Part shown: piece after piece, positions 6,266 through 19,448 of the stretch
Position numbering within the stretch: position 1 is the stretch's first letter
How the letters are laid out: each line of letters opens with the position of its first letter
From: an uncultured Solirubrobacteraceae bacterium
Lineage (GTDB): Bacteria > Actinomycetota > Thermoleophilia > Solirubrobacterales > Solirubrobacteraceae
Direction of reading: 5' to 3'
Length of the DNA stretch: 24,000 nt
NCBI GenBank assembly: GCA_963730115.1
Contig: CAVSQM010000004.1
Location: 446,771 to 470,770, forward strand
Program-made: the position numbers and the translations under genes
Notes under the pieces: model-generated
Told to the model about the DNA's origin: nothing
What the model saw: only the letters and a program-made list of their open reading frames with translations
Database searches by the model: none

Positions 6266-6946
6266 ATGGTGCTCTTCGCCGGACCGATCGTCATCGAGTG
6301 GTACTACCTCCCGATCTTCGTCCTGCTGGGCGTCGTCGCGCCGGTCGTCCTCGTCGGGCTCGTCTCCGAGCTCATCCTGCGGGCCCCTCGCCGCTCGGAG
6401 CCGCTCACGTGGGCGAAGCGGCGCCGGACGTGGGCGGGCGTCGCGGTCGGTTGGCTGCTGCTCGCGCTCGTCTTCGACGGCGTGATCCCGAAGCTGCGCG
6501 AGGGCGGCGAGGCGCGAGCCACCAAGCGCGCGCTCGACTTCACGCCGCACGAGCCGCAACCGCTCCCGGCGACGTTCAGCGTCACGGCCGTGAACGCCAC
6601 GCTCGGCCCGCCGAGGCTGGTCAGCTACTACCTGATCGGCTCGAGCGCCCTCACCGATTCCCAGCAGCGGCCGGTGGGGCGGGTCGTGGCAGAGGACGGC
6701 AAGTGTGCGCTCACGCAGCTGGGACCGAAGCCGTTCCGGTGCCGCGAGCGGCGCACGCCCGCGGGCATCCGGGTCTTCTTCGCCGAGTCGCGCCGCAGCC
6801 AGGTGGGGCGCCGCATGGCGTTCGCCGTGCTGGACGGCACGCTGGTGCGCGTCACCTTCGAGCCGCTGCCCGAAGACTCCGTGCTCGCCTACTTCGACTC
6901 GCTGCGGCCGGTCGACAAGGACGACATCGAGTTCACGCGGGGATGA
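6266..6946 (+). CDS. Hypothetical membrane-anchored protein, tandem paralog 1 (two N-terminal TM helices plus extracytoplasmic domain)
   Basis: 226-aa ORF with TM segments IEWYYLPIFVLLGVVAPVVLVGLV and WAGVAVGWLLLALVF. The soluble domain has DFTPHEPQPLP, two Cys residues, and a C-terminal AFAVLDGTLVRV...VLAYFDSLRPVDKDDIEFTRG. It has clear similarity to the next ORF. Confidence 0.6.
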   Translation: MVLFAGPIVIEWYYLPIFVLLGVVAPVVLVGLVSELILRAPRRSEPLTWAKRRRTWAGVAVGWLLLALVFDGVIPKLREGGEARATKRALDFTPHEPQPLPATFSVTAVNATLGPPRLVSYYLIGSSALTDSQQRPVGRVVAEDGKCALTQLGPKPFRCRERRTPAGIRVFFAESRRSQVGRRMAFAVLDGTLVRVTFEPLPEDSVLAYFDSLRPVDKDDIEFTRG

Positions 6947-7636: not shown

Positions 7637-8772
7637 ATGGACTTCGACCTCTCTGACGACCACGAGCTGATCCGCCGCACCGTCCGCGACTTCGCCGAGG
7701 GCGAGGTCGCGCCGGTGGCCGAGGAGCTGGATCGCGAGAAGCGCTTCCCGTACGAGATCGTCGCCAAGCTCGGCGAGCTCGGGCTCATGGGCATCCCGTT
7801 CCCCGAGGAGTACGGCGGCGCCGGCGGCGACACGCTCGCCTACGCGCTCGCCGTCGAGGAGCTCACGCGCGTCGACTCGAGCGTGGCGATCACGATGTGC
7901 GCGCACACGTCGCTCGGGACGCAGCCGATCTACCTGTTCGGCTCGGAGGAGCAGAAGCAGGAGTGGCTGCCGGAGCTGACCGCGGGGCGCAAGCTCGGCG
8001 CGTTCGGGCTGACCGAGCCGGAGGCCGGCTCGGACGCCGGCAACGTCCGCACCCGCGCGCGCCGCGACAACGGCGACTGGGTGATCGACGGCGCCAAGCA
8101 GTTCATCACCAACGCGGGCACCGACATCTCCGGCGTCGTCTCCATCACCGCCCGCACCGGCGCGGACGAGATCTCCAACTTGATCGTGCCGAACGGGACG
8201 CCCGGCTACGAGCAGGGCGAGCCGTACCGCAAGATGGGCTGGAACGCGTCGGACACGCGGCCGTTGACGTTCACGGACTGCCGGGTGCCGGAGGACGCGC
8301 TGCTCGGGCCGGTCGGCCAGGGCTTCAAGCAGTTCCTCCACATCCTCGACATCGGCCGCATCGGGGTCGCGGCGATGGGCGTCGGGCTCGCGCAGGGCGC
8401 GCTCGACGAGGCGCTGAAGTACGCCAAGGAGCGGCGCGCGTTCGGCAAGCCGATCTCCAAGTACCAGGCGATCCAGGCCAAGCTCGCCGACATGGCGACC
8501 GAGATCGAGGCGGCGCCGGCTGCTGACCTACAAGGCGGCGCGGCTCAAGGACGCGGGCCGCAACTTCACGCTGACCGCCGCGCAGGCCAAGCTCAAGACC
8601 GGCCGCCTCGCGGTGCGCGCGACCGAGGAGGCGGTCCAGATCCACGGCGGCTACGGCTACATCGAGGAGTACCCGGTGTGCCGCTTCTACCGCGACGCCA
8701 AGATCCTCACCATCGGCGAGGGCACCGACGAGGTCCAGCAGATGGTGATCGCGCGGGCGCTGGGGCGCCTAG
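7637..8772 (+). pseudogene. Acyl-CoA dehydrogenase (second copy), two apparent +1 insertions near the 3' end
   Basis: Translation from ATG 7637 (MDFDLSDDHELIRRTVRDFAEGEV...) contains GAFGLTEPEAGSDAG and GAKQFITNAG, up to ...ADMATEIEAA. The frame then shifts (extra C in CC 8516-8517) to LLTYKAARLKDAGRNFTLTAAQAKLKTGRLAVRATEEAVQIHGGYGYIEEYPVCRFYRDAKILTIGEGTDEVQQMVIARAL. The stop TAG 8770-8772 is reached only if one G of GGGG 8762-8765 is removed. Total length is 3n+2, consistent with two insertions. Confidence 0.85.
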
Positions 8773-9814
8773 GCGGCGGTGCCCGCCTCGATCGCCCACC
8801 GCCGCCCGGCGCTGCTTGGCGCGGTAGAGGTCGGCGTCGGCGGCGCGGTGCAGGTCCTCGGCGCAGAGGCCGTCGACCGGCAGCGCGGCGATCCCGATCG
8901 AGGCGTCGGCGACGGCGCCGAGCCGCTGCTCGAGCCGCTCGGCGGCCGCGCGCAGCTCGCCCGGGCCGGCCTCGGGCAGCAGCACCGCGAACTCGTCGCC
9001 GCCGAGGCGGCCGAGCACGTCGGCCGGGCGCAGGTCGGCGGCGAGCGTCCGCGCCACCTCGCACAGCAGGTCGTCGCCGGCGGCGTGGCCGCGGGTGTCG
9101 TTGATGCGTCTTGAAGTCGTCGAGGTCGATCACGATCAGGCCGAGCGGGCGGCCGTCGTGGCGGAGGTGGTCGGCCAGCTCGGCCGTGAAGCGCTCGGTG
9201 AAGCCGCGGCGGTTGAGCGCGCCGGTCAGCGGGTCGGCGCGCGAGAGCGACTGCAACTCGCCGCGCTGGCGCTCGCGGTTGACGGCCTGGGAGAACCCCA
9301 TGACGGTGCCGGTCGCCAGCAGCGCGGCGAACACGACGATCGTCTCGGGCGTCGCGCTGCCGGCGAGCACCGCCCCGCCGACGTAGCCGGCGACCGACAA
9401 CGCTCCGGTGGCGATCACGGAGCGCGGCGGGTACGACAGCGCCGCGAAGAACAGCGGCAGGAAGAACAGCGCCCGCAACGGGCTGTCGTCGCCGCCGTCG
9501 GCCGCGACGACGAGCGCGATCAGCGTCACGTCGAGCGCGGTCCAGACGAGGAAGAACGCCTCGCGCCAGTGCGAGCGCATCAGCGCGGCGGTGGGCAGGC
9601 GCGACATCAGGTAGCCGGAGGCCATGGCGACCGCCACCAGCGCCGCGATCTCCGCGCGGTGCGGCTGCTCCCAGGAGGCGCAGGCGTAACCGAGCACGAC
9701 CAGCGCGACGGCGTAGGTCAGCCAGGCCCCGTCCCGGAGGGTGCGTTCGCGGAACTTGAGGAAGGCCTCGTCTGGCTCAGGGGTTGGCCACCAGCGCGCC
9801 ATTTGGAGGAACAT
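8769..9814 (-). pseudogene. Membrane-bound diguanylate cyclase (multi-TM N-terminal domain plus GGDEF), two apparent +1 insertions
   Basis: The N-terminus from ORF 8687-9901 (start ATG 9814 or 9802) has 5-6 hydrophobic helices, then DPLTGALNRRGF...LIVIDLDDFKT. A frame change at ~9104-9109 leads to INDTRGHAAGDDLLCEVARTLAADLRPADVLGRLGGDEFAVLLP (ORF 8707-9057), with an RxxD I-site (RPAD) 5 aa before GGDEF. A second shift at GG 8808-8809 gives LYRAKQRGRRWAIEAGTAA and a stop at 8771-8769. Total length is 3n+2. Confidence 0.8.
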
Positions 9815-9845
9815 CGGCAGAAAGGCCAGACAGTTGAGCGGCAAC

Positions 9846-11166
9846 GTGCCCGATCGGGTCCGCCGGTGGGCCCGGCTACGGTGCTCGGGATGCGCGTGCA
9901 TCGCCGTGTGGGCGGTCCTGTTCGCCGTCTACGCGGCCACGCTCGGGGTCGACGCGCTCGGCAGGAGCGACTTCGCGGGCGACGAGCCGCGCCATCTGCT
10001 GACGGCCGAGTCGATCGTCTCCGACTTCGACATCGACCTCGGCGACGAGTTCTCCACCCGCGCCTACGCCGAGTGGCACCCGGGCGCGCTGCAGCCGGAG
10101 GGGATGGTCGTGCTCGGGCGCCGGCTCGAGCCGCAGGGCTTCGGCTTCGCGCTCCTGATCGCCCCCGCGTACGCGCTCGGCGGAGCGTTCGGCGTCGAGC
10201 TCTTCCTCGCCGCGGTGGCGGCGCTCGCGTTCGCGCTCGGGGCGCTGGTGGCGCGGCGGATCGTGCCGGAGCCGTGGGCGAGCGGCGGCGCGCTGCTCGT
10301 CGGGCTCTCGCCGCCGGCGCTCGCGAACGCCACCAGCGTCTACCCGGACCTGCTGGCCGGGGCGATGCTCGCCGGCGCCATGCTGGCCGCGCTGCGGGTG
10401 CGCGAGCGGCCGGACCTCTCCAGCGCGGTGGTGGGCGCGACGCTGCTCGCGCTGCTGCCGTGGCTGGGCCCGAAGTTCCTGCTCCCGGCGGCGCCGGTGG
10501 CGGTCGCGCTGGTGCGCTGGACGGCGCGCCGCGGGCGCCGCACGGCGGCCCTGGCGGCCGCCGAGATCATGGTCGCCTCGCTGATCGTCTGCGCGACGAT
10601 CAACGACCGCCTGTACGGCGGGCTCGTGCCCTCGGCGGTCGCGGCCTCGGGCGAGTCACCGACCGGCGCGGACTCGGCCGCCGACTACCTCGAGCGCGCG
10701 CCGCGCCTCGCCGCGCTGTGGATCGACCGCGACGTCGGCCTGCTCCGCTGGGCGCCCGTGCTCGCGCTCGCCGTGTTCGCGGTCTGGCTGCTGTGGCACT
10801 CGCGGCACACGCACGTCGCCCGTGTGGCGGCCGAGCGCGGCGACGCCGAGGTCGCGGCCGGGCTGGCGCTGCTCGTGTGCGCCGCCGTCGTGCTCGTGGC
10901 CGCGTTCGCCGCGCCGACGCTGACCGGCGACTGGTTCCCCGCGCGGCACCTGATGGCGGCGTTCCCGATCGCCTCGGCGCTCGTGGCCTGGGGTCTGCGG
11001 CACGCGCCGCGCACCGGCGCGGTGCTCGGCGCCCTGACGCTGCTGTGCTCGGCGTGGCTGGTGATCGCGCTGGCGCTCGGCGACGCCGACGGGTGGGTGC
11101 GCGCCGGGCGTGGACGCGCCCTACGGGCCGGCGGTCGAGCTGCTGCCGCGGTTCGGGCGTCCGTGA
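9846..11166 (+). pseudogene. Polytopic membrane protein, GT-C-type (ArnT/PMT-like) glycosyltransferase candidate; one apparent +1 insertion near the 3' end
   Basis: From ORF 9741-11246 (start GTG 9846 or TTG 9834). It has more than 10 hydrophobic segments and an early loop with FAGDEPRHLLTAESI (a D-E containing first loop, as in GT-C enzymes). Removing one G from GGG 11106-11108 gives the natural-looking end ..GWVRAGVDAPYGPAVELLPRFGRP and stop TGA 11164-11166. The family call rests on architecture only. Confidence 0.45.
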
Positions 11167-11170
11167 GCGA

Positions 11171-11316
11171 ACGTCAACTGCGGCTGGGTAGGGAGCGGGT
11201 TCGAGGCTGCCGCGGAGCCCACGAGTGTCGTCTCGACCACCCATGAGGTGGTCGAGGTGACATTCGTGCCCGCTCGCAGCGGTTCGGACCGACCCCTACC
11301 CCGCCGCTGTTGACGT
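11171..11316. repeat. Imperfect-palindromic intergenic repeat, copy A (~146 nt, termini ACGTCAAC...GTTGACGT)
   Basis: It shares long identical blocks with 19098-19241: ACGTCAACTGCG, CTGGGTAG, CGGGTTCGA, GGAGCCCACGAGTGTC, TCGAGGTGACATTCGT, CCCTACCC, GTTGACGT. The arms are self-complementary, with an apical stem CTCGACCACC/GGTGGTCGAG around the loop CATGA. It fills the gap between two convergent stop codons (11166 and 11319) almost exactly. Confidence 0.8.
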
Positions 11317-11318
11317 TG

Positions 11319-12318
11319 CTACCGAGCGGCCTCGGCCTGCTGATCCGGCCGCGCCGCCTCGCCGGCCTCGACCGCGCCCCGCGCGAGGATCGCGGAGGCG
11401 GCGCTCGCCGGGTCCAGGCGCCGCGCCACGACCTCGTCGAGCAGCTCCTGGACCTCGGGGTCCTCGCGCAGGGAAGCCTCCAGTGCGCGCCGTAGCCGCA
11501 CGGTGGCGAGCCCGAGCACCTCGTTCATGAGGTTGCGGCGGCGGCGCTCGGCCAGCAGCCCCTCGGACTCGACGTACTCGCGGTGCTGGGCGAGCTTCTC
11601 GGCCAGCGCCTCGACGCCCTCGCCGCGGTGCGCCTCGGTCTTGACGATCGGGACCGGCCAGTCGCCCTGCGGCGCGAGCGACAGCACGCCCTTGATCTCG
11701 CGCACCATCGTGTCCGTCAGCGGGTGGTCGGACTTGTTGACCACGATCACGTCGGGGATCTCCATCACGCCCGCCTTGAGCGCCTGGATCGAGTCGCCGG
11801 AGCCGGGGATCAGCACGAGCACGACCGAGTCGGCGTGGTCGATGACGTCGACCTCGGCCTGGCCGACGCCGACCGTCTCGAGGAAGACGTCGTCCTTGCC
11901 CGCCGCGTCCATCAGCAGCGCCGCCTGCAGCGCGGCCTCGGCCAGGCCCGCCGAGCGCGCCGCGGGTCGCCATCGAGCGGATGAAGACGCCGGGGTCGAG
12001 GAAGTGCTCGGAGAGCCGGATCCGGTCGCCGAGCAGCGCGCCGCCGCGGAACGGCGAGGACGGGTCGATGGAGAGCACCGCCACCTGGCGGTCGGCCTCG
12101 CGCCGGTGCTTCACCAGCGCGCCGATCAGGGTCGACTTGCCGGCGCCGGGCGGGCCGGTGAAGCCGACGATCGCCGCCTTGCCGGTGTGCGGGTAGATCT
12201 CGCGGACGAGCGCCCAGCCCTCCGGGTCGTCGTCCTCGACCAGCGAGATGCCGCGCGCCAGTGCGCGCTTGTCGCCGTTGAGCAGGCGCTCTGCGAGGGA
12301 GGGCTTTTCATCGGCCAT
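11319..12318 (-). pseudogene. meaB: Methylmalonyl-CoA mutase-associated GTPase MeaB/ArgK (G3E family), one apparent +1 insertion
   Basis: From ATG 12318 the translation is MADEKPSLAERLLNGDKRALARGISLVED...GFTGPPGAGKSTLIGAL (P-loop)...LSIDPSSPFRGGALLGDRIR...FIRSMATRGALGG. The frame then shifts (CCC 11947-11949 on the + strand) to LAEAALQAALLMDAAGKDDVFLETVGVGQAEVDV...VVNKSDH (ORF 11319-11912). Total length is 3n+1. Confidence 0.85.
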
Positions 12319-13085: not shown

Positions 13086-13731
13086 CGCAGACCGGCCAAG
13101 GGCTCGACCCGCGCTGCGCGTAGAGCTTGGCCGCCATCGCGTCCTGGACCGACTCGGCCGCGGCGGCCGGGTCACCCTTGCCGCCGAGGTCGCGCCAGGT
13201 CGCGCGGGAGAACTGGTACTTGCCGCGGTACTGCCCGGTCGAGGAGACCGCGGTCGGGTCGCCCCCGGACTCGCAGCGGGCGATCCGGGCGAGCGTGCCG
13301 GAGCCGCCCGAGCCGCTCGAGGTGGAGGTCCCGCCGGTCGACTGCGTCTTCACCGAGCCGGCGGCGATGCCGAGGCTCGAGAGCGTGGCCGGGCCGGCGA
13401 TGCCGTCGACCGCGAGGCCCTGGTTGCGCTGGTAGTTGCGGATCGCCCGGCGCGTGACCGGGCCGATGATGCCGTCGGCGGGGACGCCGAGCGCGGTCTG
13501 CAGCGCCACCACGCCCGAGGCGCTGGTGCTGCGCTTGCTGGTGGCCGGGCCGTCTTGCGCGACCGCGCCGCCGGCGACGAGGGTCATGGCCGCGAGCAGC
13601 GCGGCGCCGCCGCCGCGGCCGGCGCGCCGGCGGCGTGCCTGCCGCGCGGCGTCGGCTCTCCGGCGCCGCGAGGCGCTGAGCGACGCGAGCCACGGGCTCG
13701 GGTTCGCAGGATCGATGAAGGGCACTGCCAC
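13081..13731 (-). CDS. Resuscitation-promoting-factor-like secreted muralytic protein (signal/TM, PG_binding_1 domain, Ser/Gly linker, Rpf transglycosylase-like domain)
   Basis: 216-aa ORF. It has an Arg-rich N-terminus plus hydrophobic AALLAAMTLVAGGAVA. The PG-binding repeat is VVALQTALGVPADGIIGPVTRRAIRNYQRNQGLAVDGIAGPATL. The C-terminal segment is IARCESGGDPTAVSSTGQYRGKYQFSRATWRDLGG...SPWPVCG (Rpf domain with catalytic Glu in CES). The alternative start GTG 13725 has better spacing from the AGGAGG. Confidence 0.8.
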   Translation of the reverse strand: MAVPFIDPANPSPWLASLSASRRRRADAARQARRRRAGRGGGAALLAAMTLVAGGAVAQDGPATSKRSTSASGVVALQTALGVPADGIIGPVTRRAIRNYQRNQGLAVDGIAGPATLSSLGIAAGSVKTQSTGGTSTSSGSGGSGTLARIARCESGGDPTAVSSTGQYRGKYQFSRATWRDLGGKGDPAAAAESVQDAMAAKLYAQRGSSPWPVCG

Positions 13732-13741
13732 CTCCTGGGTC

Positions 13742-13880
13742 TTGGTGCCTGCGGGGTTAGCTGTCGGGCTCGCGCTAAGACCTGCGCTACGCCGGGCTCT
13801 AACCGGCGATTCGCCCCGGGCGCCGAAGCGCCAGTGGGTCCCCCGCTCCCCGCCGCTCGTCGGGCGGAGACTCGGCCGTG
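13742..13880 (-). promoter_or_regulatory. ydaO/yuaA-type cyclic-di-AMP riboswitch in the 5' UTR of the rpf-like gene
   Basis: The minus-strand transcript contains the class-defining blocks GAGCGGGGGACCCA (13848-13835), GGGGCGAAUC (13817-13808) and CCCGACAGCUAACCCCGCAGGC (13768-13747). Intervening GC hairpins (GGCGCUUCGGCGCC; GCCGG..CCGGC) are present, followed by AGGAGG and the start codon. The boundaries are approximate. Confidence 0.85.
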
Positions 13881-13900
13881 TTCAGTTCAAGAAGGCGAGC

Positions 13901-18880: not shown

Positions 18881-19117
18881 ATGCCGCAGCTGATCGACGC
18901 CCGCGGGCTCCTGTGCCCGCTCCCCGCGCTGAAGGCCCGCCGCGCGCTGGCGGGGTTGGCCCCTGGCGAGGTGCTCGTGGTGCTGGCCACCGACCCCGAG
19001 GCGCCGGTCGACGTGGGCGCGCTGGCCGCGGAGGGCGGGCACGGGTTCGAGGCGGAGCGCTCGGGGAGTGAATGGCGCCTGACGGTGACGAAGGCTCACG
19101 TCAACTGCGCTGGGTAG
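18881..19117 (+). CDS. TusA/SirA-family sulfurtransferase-like protein
   Basis: 78 aa from ATG 18881: MPQLIDARGLLCPLPALKARRALAGLAPGEVLVVLATDPEAPVDV..., with the CPxP active-site motif. The last 6 codons and the stop lie inside repeat copy B. Confidence 0.75.
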   Translation: MPQLIDARGLLCPLPALKARRALAGLAPGEVLVVLATDPEAPVDVGALAAEGGHGFEAERSGSEWRLTVTKAHVNCAG

Positions 19118-19241
19118 CGATCGGGTTCGATACCCCGTGGAGCCCACGAGTGTCAGCTCGATAGGCCCACAGCCCGATCGAGGTGACATTCGTCGCCTCG
19201 GTGGCACCCGCACCCGATCCCTACCCAGCCGCCGTTGACGT
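19098..19241. repeat. Imperfect-palindromic intergenic repeat, copy B (~144 nt)
   Basis: It has the same termini and internal blocks as 11171-11316, and its arms are self-complementary (e.g. GATCGGGT/ACCCGATC, CACGAGTGTCAGCTCGAT/ATCGAGGTGACATTCGT). The apical sequence differs from copy A but still pairs. Confidence 0.8.
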
Positions 19242-19303
19242 TCGCCGGCGCCACCAACAAACACTCCGGCTAGCCGTACCAATCGCCCCACCGACATCCG
19301 CTA

Positions 19304-19332
19304 CTTTATCGATACAGTCTTAATCGATCCAG
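19304..19332. promoter_or_regulatory. Two tandem 14-bp CG-centred palindromic boxes (LacI-family operator-like)
   Basis: CTTTATCGATACAG (19304-19317) and CTTAATCGATCCAG (19319-19332) give the consensus CTTWATCGATMCAG. This is the most AT-rich patch of the window and lies ~130 bp upstream of the LacI-family gene. Confidence 0.4.
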
Positions 19333-19343
19333 AAAGGCTCCCC

Positions 19344-19448
19344 GTGTACCTCACCGGCGTCCCCATCCTCGACATCACCGGCCCCAACTCCCTCGCCCGC
19401 TCCGCGCTTCCGCACGCCCCGATCCGGCGGGAGCGCCGCCGCAAGTAG
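19344..19448 (+). CDS. Candidate small ORF (34 aa) between the operator-like boxes and the LacI gene
   Basis: GTG 19344 to TAG 19446-19448 encodes VYLTGVPILDITGPNSLARSALPHAPIRRERRRK. Of 34 sense codons, 33 end in G or C. AAAGG lies 7 nt upstream. No homology was recognised. Confidence 0.2.
   Translation: MYLTGVPILDITGPNSLARSALPHAPIRRERRRK

Follow-up and report, generated by a model that had tools for sequence, protein, structure and literature searches.

A clade-restricted family of nested palindromic repeats found mostly between convergent genes in uncultured Solirubrobacteraceae

The window analysed here, a 24,000-nt stretch from the genome of an uncultured Solirubrobacteraceae bacterium (GCA_963730115.1, contig CAVSQM010000004.1, positions 446,771 to 470,770), contains two copies, A and B, of a long imperfect palindrome (Table 1). 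Copy A fills the gap between the stop codon of an upstream membrane-protein gene, for which there was no Pfam match, and the stop codon of meaB, a convergent GTPase gene. An earlier note on this DNA, made from the letters of the window, had placed the copy 4 nt after the TGA of the upstream gene, with 2 nt separating its other end from the stop codon of meaB (read as CTA on the + strand), and this placement was correct. Copy B lies at the end of a TusA-family gene; its left arm, together with the insert base just before it, supplies the TAG of that gene and its last 7 codons (AHVNCAG), of which about six lie inside the copy. The Pfam TusA domain itself spans residues 5-71 of the 78 residues.

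Table 1. Features of the two repeat copies and of their flanks, in positions of the window
Feature	Position	Strand	Description
Upstream membrane-protein gene	9756..11166	+	ends at TGA 11164-11166; frame break ~11102-11108
Copy A, palindrome	11171-11316	.	coordinates of the earlier note, confirmed
Copy A, whole element	11167..11319	.	includes the extended inverted repeat GCGAACGTCAAC ... GTTGACGTTGC
Copy A, left arm	11167..11219	.	outer layer GAACGTCAAC-TGCG-GCTGGGTAGGG; middle layer GCGGGTTCGAGGCTGCCGCGGAGCC
Copy A, central hairpin (core1)	11220..11268	.	CACGAGTGTCGTCTCGA-CCACC-CATGA-GGTGG-TCGAGGTGACATTCGTG
Copy A, apical stem	11237-11241 / 11247-11251		loop 11242-11246
Copy A, right arm	11269..11319	.	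left arm inverted; terminates in GTTGACGTTGC
meaB (GTPase), convergent on copy A	11319..12318	-	stop codon 11319-11321
TusA-family gene	18881..19117	+	stop TAG 19115-19117
Copy B, as inserted DNA	19095..19262	.	~168 nt, delimited by comparison with the orthologous locus of congener G003, which is empty
Copy B, core palindrome	19098-19241		extended right repeat to 19246
Copy B, core1	19145-19193		

Both genes that flank copy A are broken in the window assembly. The MeaB profile (Pfam) is split over two frames, and the TGA-ending frame before copy A is reached solely via a 1-nt assembly indel near 11102-11108, as indicated by a switch of GC3 phase and by a public contig with one base fewer at 11102. 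Because relatives have meaB as a single intact open frame (343-387 aa; 381 aa in three of them) and the public contig lacks base 11102, the frame breaks in the two genes are long-read assembly indels and not signs of pseudogenes. The C-termini of orthologues of the membrane-protein gene (..LLPRF..) align as far as the insertion point.

Copies A and B share the termini ACGTCAACTGCG...GTTGACGT and all of the internal blocks that the earlier note had listed (CTGGGTAG, CGGGTTCGA, GGAGCCCACGAGTGTC, TCGAGGTGACATTCGT and CCCTACCC), with a mean column identity of 83% in a pairwise alignment. Their apices are self-complementary as described (CTCGACCACC/GGTGGTCGAG in copy A; CTCGATAGGC-CCACA-GCCCGATCGAG in copy B), and folding of both strands confirmed that each copy can form one long imperfect hairpin. 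The predicted folding energies were −107.7 kcal/mol (+ strand) and −99.0 kcal/mol (− strand) for copy A (z −11.5 and −10.8) and −88.3 kcal/mol (+ strand) and −95.8 kcal/mol (− strand) for copy B (z −10.5 and −9.1). Across this range of z from −9.1 to −11.5, none of 200 shuffles folded as stably as the copies.

The two copies are members of an undescribed, clade-restricted, multi-copy palindromic repeat family of uncultured Solirubrobacteraceae. In the same genome (G000; a 4.4-Mb assembly of 12 contigs with 72.7% G+C) we found 52-55 loci by blastn and an nhmmer profile, corresponding to ~51 elements, and dozens more are present in sister species, as expected from the suggestion that the repeat forms a family. 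The alternative that the earlier note had itself put forward, a local duplication, fails against ~51 dispersed elements (55 loci by nhmmer). The relatives compared were uncultured soil Solirubrobacteraceae MAGs. The genomes, all MAGs, are 71-98% complete, so that a gene missing from any one of them counts for little. Nine of 10 congeners carry the family, with 14-59 matches each; one congener, G006, has zero copies and another has very few. Twenty genomes outside the genus, drawn from the rest of the family and order, gave no match. When the arm motif was searched as the pattern GAACGTCAAC-N(3-6)-GCTGGGTAGG, it occurred 29 times in this genome and was present in 39 of 401 family genomes (6 of 51 genera), with up to 142 arms per genome, and a reversed control of the pattern gave 0 occurrences both in this genome and across the family genomes. 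In a scan of one genome per species (185,579 species), all of the matches listed came from Solirubrobacteraceae, Solirubrobacterales or Actinomycetota MAGs, and no viral contig or plasmid record matched the element.

The expectation that the repeat would match no described RNA family also held, in that a search of the window against Rfam at E <= 1 gave no hit for either copy. Seventeen loci with other cores likewise gave nothing above the gathering score at E <= 0.1, and sub-threshold hits of miRNA models on two loci (L194 and L114) were taken as chance. We found no report of palindromic repeats in Solirubrobacterales in the literature. Because G006 has no copies and an element occupies only ~5% of the ~650 convergent gaps, we conclude that the family is dispensable.

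Each element is built as a nest of inverted-repeat layers. The arms are the best conserved layer (GAACGTCAAC-N4-GCTGGGTAGGG and its complement); inside them lie a middle layer (GGGTTCGAACC-GCCGCGG) and then the central hairpin, which in copies A and B is core1, CACGAGTGTC..CTCGA-apex-TCGAG..GACATTCGTG (CACGA.TGTC..CTCGA-apex-TCGAG..GACA.TCGTG). For copy A, the layers of the left arm were defined from the invariant and near-invariant columns in an alignment of 36 elements. The inverted repeat does extend further than the palindrome, as had been suspected, with GGCGAACGTCAAC / GTTGACGTTCGCC as the family consensus of the ends. An optional outermost layer (GGCGTYCGCGG..; GGCGTYCGCGGCAGCGCCRCCGA) lies outside the arms in about half of the copies. 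This layer belongs to the inserted DNA at element el0, where an empty site is available for comparison; a regular-expression search for it was crude and too noisy for use.

The centre of the nest is interchangeable. In this genome the same arms enclose at least four types of central hairpin, namely core1 and at least three unrelated ones, and core1 also stands alone, without arms, at at least seven loci. Other MAGs contain arms-only elements, which form a hairpin of 57-81 nt, as well as arms that enclose several stacked hairpins. The earlier note had suggested a variable core, and the centre does vary, but it is better read as a set of exchangeable hairpin modules nested within conserved arms.

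Several individual elements depart from this plan. At G000 C12:524625-524835 (211 nt), one arm pair encloses two tandem core1 hairpins with different apices and opposite orientations. At L047 7038-7228, one left arm is followed by four tandem right arms spaced ~53-60 nt apart, an array form of which none was seen in the window's genome. The arm itself comes in two allelic versions, GCTGGGTAGGG (complement CCCTACCCAGC) and GGCATYGAGGG (complement CCCTCRATGCC), and elements with one arm of each allele carry an internal loop (arm-allele examples at G000 C4:520176, C1:367395 and C12:964050); such mixed elements suggest recombination between copies. At L052 6395-7797 (CAVSRU010000005.1), an IS481-family insertion sequence (IS) with a 367-aa transposase lies between two element arms, inside which it keeps inverted repeats of its own (6557-6577 and 7724-7744). 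Short derivatives of IS481 ends also lie between L052 arms, with similar derivatives in L047 and L039, and the apex of the arm hairpin thus seems to collect other mobile DNA.

We compared the element-bearing loci with their orthologues in other species. The copy A locus is empty in three congeners (G008, G010 and G002), whose stop codons are 0-14 nt apart, and is filled in four others (G003, G004, G005 and G007) with other central modules or in the other orientation. For 24 further elements, the joined flanks were queried against three well-assembled congeners and then aligned, which gave clean empty sites for 8 of the 24, copy B (el5) included; in a ninth case (el22), G008 holds only a short arms-only version. 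In the eight insertion/empty pairs, the insert starts 0-16 nt past the stop codon and replaces a spacer of 0-24 nt, and in three cases the empty site has overlapping convergent stops (CTAG). The tusA orthologue of G003, an empty site, ends ..LTLTKESG* and is followed directly by the sequence that follows copy B here. None of the eight pairs has a flanking direct repeat of more than 2 nt, and the copy A locus gave the same outcome. The absence of a target-site duplication (TSD) that the earlier note had reported from the window is therefore upheld by comparison with real empty sites, and orthologous loci are polymorphic for insertion without such a duplication.

Four of the tested elements, including copy B, are missing from G003, the apparent sister species, in which the flanks are 75-97% identical, so that these insertions are comparatively recent. 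Precise deletion that restores overlapping stops is much less likely than insertion. We conclude that the elements were evidently inserted whole, immediately after stop codons and for the most part at places where convergent genes abut, and we infer movement of the element from its presence and absence between species.

One explanation for such insertions is that the element is a classic MITE, that is, a deletion derivative of an IS with a DDE transposase that is mobilised in trans via its terminal inverted repeats. Long terminal inverted repeats (GGCGAACGTCAAC / GTTGACGTTCGCC), small size, high copy number and presence or absence at orthologous loci are all in keeping with a MITE, as is the IS481-family transposase found between arms in one MAG. 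However, a TSD was seen at 0 of the 8 insertion/empty pairs, and the palindrome spans the whole element and not its ends alone. An arm-flanked parent transposase was found neither in G000, where no arm pairs lie more than 320 nt apart, nor at the 119 loci fetched from other MAGs, in a search of incomplete genomes that was not exhaustive. The sole long arm pair among those 119 loci is the one that holds the IS481-like IS, which we rejected as the parent element; because it keeps its own inverted repeats inside the arms, it is a nested guest. We consider a classic MITE quite improbable. Of the ideas in the earlier note, a MITE-like element with a variable core nevertheless came closest: the variable core stands, and the resemblance to a classic DDE-type MITE does not (no TSD, no parent IS).

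After insertion, arms and centre appear to follow different courses. At orthologous sites filled in at least two species, the arms are common and the central module or apex is different in 11 of 11 cases; at one of these sites the species share even a deletion of the arm tip, and the el20 site is occupied in all four species compared. The apex in G003 is nearly always GAGGTCG-CATAC-CGACCTC where this genome has CCACC, GGGC or GGCG types; in addition, some apices are inverted with respect to the stem around them. The centre must be replaced, because point mutation cannot change 4-5 of five stem pairs while the flanks diverge by 10%. These comparisons of species indicate that the arms, once resident, are evidently inherited vertically, whereas the central module or apex is replaced or inverted, leading to apex types that are each species' own, and the different cores on orthologous arms point to concerted evolution or core exchange. 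Turnover of the core would most simply proceed by gene conversion or recombination between copies, with arms and stems serving as homology, and inversion of the core by recombination between the palindrome halves, which would flip the intervening DNA.

The pairing of the hairpin is conserved through these changes. In an alignment of 36 core1 elements from six species, the terminal and core helices have standard pairs in 94.7% of their cells, and two-sided changes occur in 64 cells, compared with 24.9 in column shuffles, with 0 of 500 shuffles reaching the observed 64; the covariation signal is lost when partner columns are slid. The five apical pairs switch freely (e.g., CG 16 / UA 11 / GC 6), and these strong two-sided changes in the apical stem bear out the proposal that the apex varies in a manner that preserves structure. 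The outer arm and the outer core stem, by comparison, are nearly invariant in sequence, which looks like recognition of sequence beyond shape alone. The covariation could stem from DNA-level homogenisation of the palindrome arms instead of selection on RNA; since gene conversion or recombination appears to replace the central modules, the covariation may in part be mechanical and not selected.

We examined the location of the elements with the coding strand assigned from third-position G+C phase. Convergent gaps hold 32 of 50 elements, against a baseline of 17.3% of gene junctions (p = 3e-13), and divergent gaps hold 3 of 50; the coding signal of the flanking genes begins at the element edge. 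In MAGs of other genera the convergent bias is weaker but present (19 convergent, 18 tandem, 6 divergent). Elements in tandem contexts show no orientation bias, with ~10 along transcription and 7 against it, and orientation calls from G.U wobbles are unstable, since apex and outer stem can be inverted with respect to each other. The suggestion of a structured RNA gene is unsupported, given that orientation is unlinked to transcription and that the two strands are equally able to fold. The excess of elements at convergent 3′ ends may mirror purifying selection on the sites at which insertions are tolerated, and not targeting or function.

The same features could instead belong to a functional hairpin evolved by the host, such as a bidirectional terminator, a 3′-UTR stabiliser or a BIME-like binding site for gyrase or IHF, with function and not selfish mobility explaining spread and conservation. 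The strong bias to 3′ ends and convergent gaps speaks for this view, yet the great majority of such gaps do without an element (~5% of ~650 are occupied), orthologous genes manage without one where their stop codons abut, one congener has no copies and another very few. Equal folding of both strands, as a bidirectional element should have, agrees with such a role, but there is no U-tract. The invariant blocks of the arms and of the outer core stem point to a protein that recognises them, pairing is preserved via two-sided changes, and some sites (el20) are filled in all four species compared; on the other hand, copies interrupt gene ends, as at tusA, and the identical modules at ~50 unrelated loci would still require a mechanism of dispersal. 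We regard a host-evolved functional hairpin of this kind as unlikely.

Four candidates for the mobilising enzyme were tested: a Y1/RAYT transposase, an IS110-family transposase, an integron integrase and a transposase flanked by arms. The missing TSD argues against a DDE transposase and fits enzymes that act on hairpins or on specific sites, and thus points to an enzyme of the latter kinds, if weakly, because the genomes are incomplete MAGs. An IS110-family transposase was considered and rejected as the mobiliser: four genomes with elements lack it, the genome without elements has it, and it never lies beside arms. Two Y1_Tnp genes of the IS200/RAYT type, with open frames of ~200 aa, are found in the genus, at G008:C14:26467-26787 (L140) and G010:C6:763696-764022 (L141).

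The Y1_Tnp family bears on the possibility that the element is a REPIN, or doublet of REPs, that moves by means of a RAYT (REP-associated tyrosine, HUH-type, transposase). Insertion without a TSD, an extragenic 3′ site and a convergent bias have all been reported for REPs (PMC3184786, PMC3733652), REPINs likewise combine a variable spacer with inverted ends that are conserved (PMC3116915), and the GTAG and CGTC tetranucleotides in the arms recall tagged REPs (PMC3733652). In contrast, G000 lacks RAYT/Y1 transposases (Pfam Y1_Tnp, PF01797), as do 9 of 11 genus genomes, a search of 1.5 kb around each of the two hits showed neither arms nor core1, and the arms themselves are not 20-40-nt hairpins. 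This makes RAYT-driven mobilisation very unlikely. CGTC and GTAG do occur in each arm, but the arm forms no hairpin by itself. We take the likeness to tagged REPs as a lead and not as membership; for the CGTC class of tagged REPs, which includes dRS3, Di Nocera et al. found no dedicated transposase (PMC3733652).

Enzymes that act on specific sites include the integrases of integrons, whose attC sites are imperfect palindromes with ..AAC / GTT.. ends and a variable centre at gene 3′ ends. The element ends, CGTCAAC / GTTGACG, match the attC consensus RYYYAAC / GTTRRRY at 5 of 7 positions and miss it at 2 of 7 at each end. Size range, variable centre and location behind stop codons are similar, but the elements are dispersed in both orientations, mostly between convergent genes, and do not form cassette arrays. 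An integron-type integrase (NCBIfam TIGR02249) was above the cut-off in 0 of 11 genomes, and the attC reading is effectively refuted.

Among known repeats, those closest in behaviour are REP, BIME and REPIN elements, ERIC and SPRITE. REP and BIME elements of Enterobacteria and Pseudomonas, and REPINs, are also GC-rich extragenic palindromes in many dispersed copies, with no TSD, a convergent or 3′-end bias and mosaics of modules. REP elements are reported to lack a TSD and to be biased to 3′ ends and convergent gaps (PMC3184786, PMC3733652), and REPINs have conserved inverted ends around a variable spacer that yield a long hairpin (PMC3116915). Other insertion sequences land inside REPs (PMC1525189), as does the IS481-like copy in L052 here. 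The differences are that the conserved arm here lacks a 20-40-nt hairpin of its own and pairs arm to arm, that the element is a single hairpin of 145-200 nt with 3-4 nested layers, and that no RAYT gene is associated with it. The REP survey by Di Nocera et al. does not mention Actinobacteria (PMC3733652).

ERIC elements (enterobacterial repetitive intergenic consensus, or IRU; 127 bp) are long imperfect palindromes of similar size that lie behind genes, at their 3′ ends, in intergenic DNA that is transcribed; a genome has tens of copies, and internal insertions give rise to size variants (PMC3184786). They are thought to affect mRNA stability, and elements of this type are described with terminal inverted repeats (TIRs), target duplications (TDs) and a flanking TA (PMC3184786). 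In contrast, the family here has neither a TA nor any other duplication, its centre is exchanged between species, and its sequence is unrelated, as judged from the hits listed, all of them in Solirubrobacteraceae and related MAGs, and from none in plasmid and viral collections. SPRITEs resemble the element in being hairpin repeats at convergent 3′ ends (PMC3184786), but they have a terminator-like motif, whereas the element here has no U-tract and is far longer and more stable. A consensus scan detected no U-tract, consensus terminator or consensus promoter at copy A or B; of the two parts of an intrinsic (Rho-independent) terminator, the hairpin is present at both copies and the T-run is absent. 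Public RNA and DNA runs yielded no more than fragments from relatives.

Neisseria NIMEs (RS units flanked by dRS3) have short conserved inverted repeats that bracket variable repeat units, and Correia elements show a TA duplication and contain a site for IHF. Conserved inverted repeats around variable units are a likeness of the family here to NIMEs, but NIMEs are arrays of units, whereas the family is a single nested hairpin. It has no sequence similarity to NIMEs or to Correia elements, which are intergenic MITEs of ~104-157 bp (PMC3184786). With no RAYT, no small arm hairpins, no TA duplication, no terminator motif and no sequence similarity, the family lacks the defining features of REP/REPIN, ERIC and SPRITE elements. 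What is distinctive of it is the onion-like modular build, the duplication-free insertion at abutting stops and the exchange of the centre while the arms stay.

The explanation that we favour, with a probability of roughly 0.7, is that the family is a non-autonomous palindromic repeat of a REP/BIME/NIME/ERIC-like kind that inserts without duplication behind stop codons, the arms being inherited and the cores exchanged, and that has a probable role as a hairpin at gene 3′ ends. Insertion without duplication would occur through recognition of a single-stranded hairpin or through site-specific recombination, in either case by a trans-acting enzyme and not by a DDE transposase. The element would be co-transcribed with the upstream gene or genes, and its RNA hairpin (−90 to −108 kcal/mol) would form a barrier at the 3′ end, either as a bidirectional terminator or as a block to exonucleases, for both convergent transcripts. 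Such a barrier would make insertions tolerable or mildly useful and would explain their survival behind genes; both the terminator or stabiliser role and the co-transcription are predicted from the model of the element.

A more speculative variant, which we think unlikely, is that the arms act as a docking hairpin whose apex is the landing or exchange site for mobile hairpin modules of ~50 nt, moving without a cis transposase or target duplication by a single-stranded-DNA hairpin mechanism. If true, it would amount to a cassette system made of nested palindromes alone and targeted to where convergent genes meet, by an as yet undescribed mechanism.

Most descriptions of dispersed palindromic repeats concern Proteobacteria, and for the majority of these repeats both the mobilising activity and the function are still debated. 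The family described here belongs to a deep lineage of uncultured actinobacteria and shows clear polymorphism from one sister species to the next. It also sets arms that are inherited vertically apart from central hairpins that are exchanged rapidly, and does so with unusual clarity. It thus provides a clean natural data set for the movement of palindromic repeats that have no RAYT and for the concerted evolution of palindrome halves. In addition, the elements alter the 3′ ends of genes, tusA being a case in which the element provides both C-terminus and stop codon. They will confuse gene callers, and they are likely points of breakage or collapse in assemblies of these abundant soil bacteria.

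Two other features of the window were noticed. Between copy B and the start of the next gene, at 19290-19345, lies an AT-rich block, CTACTTTATCGATACAGTCTTAATCGATCCAGAAAGG, which is nearly unchanged across all four species compared and looks like an operator or promoter, with symmetry of the TCGAT-N-ATCGA type. At 13730-13887 on the − strand is a c-di-AMP (ydaO-type) riboswitch (57.9 bits, against a gathering score of 38), and a second riboswitch of this type is present in a related MAG, at L047 5600-5748.
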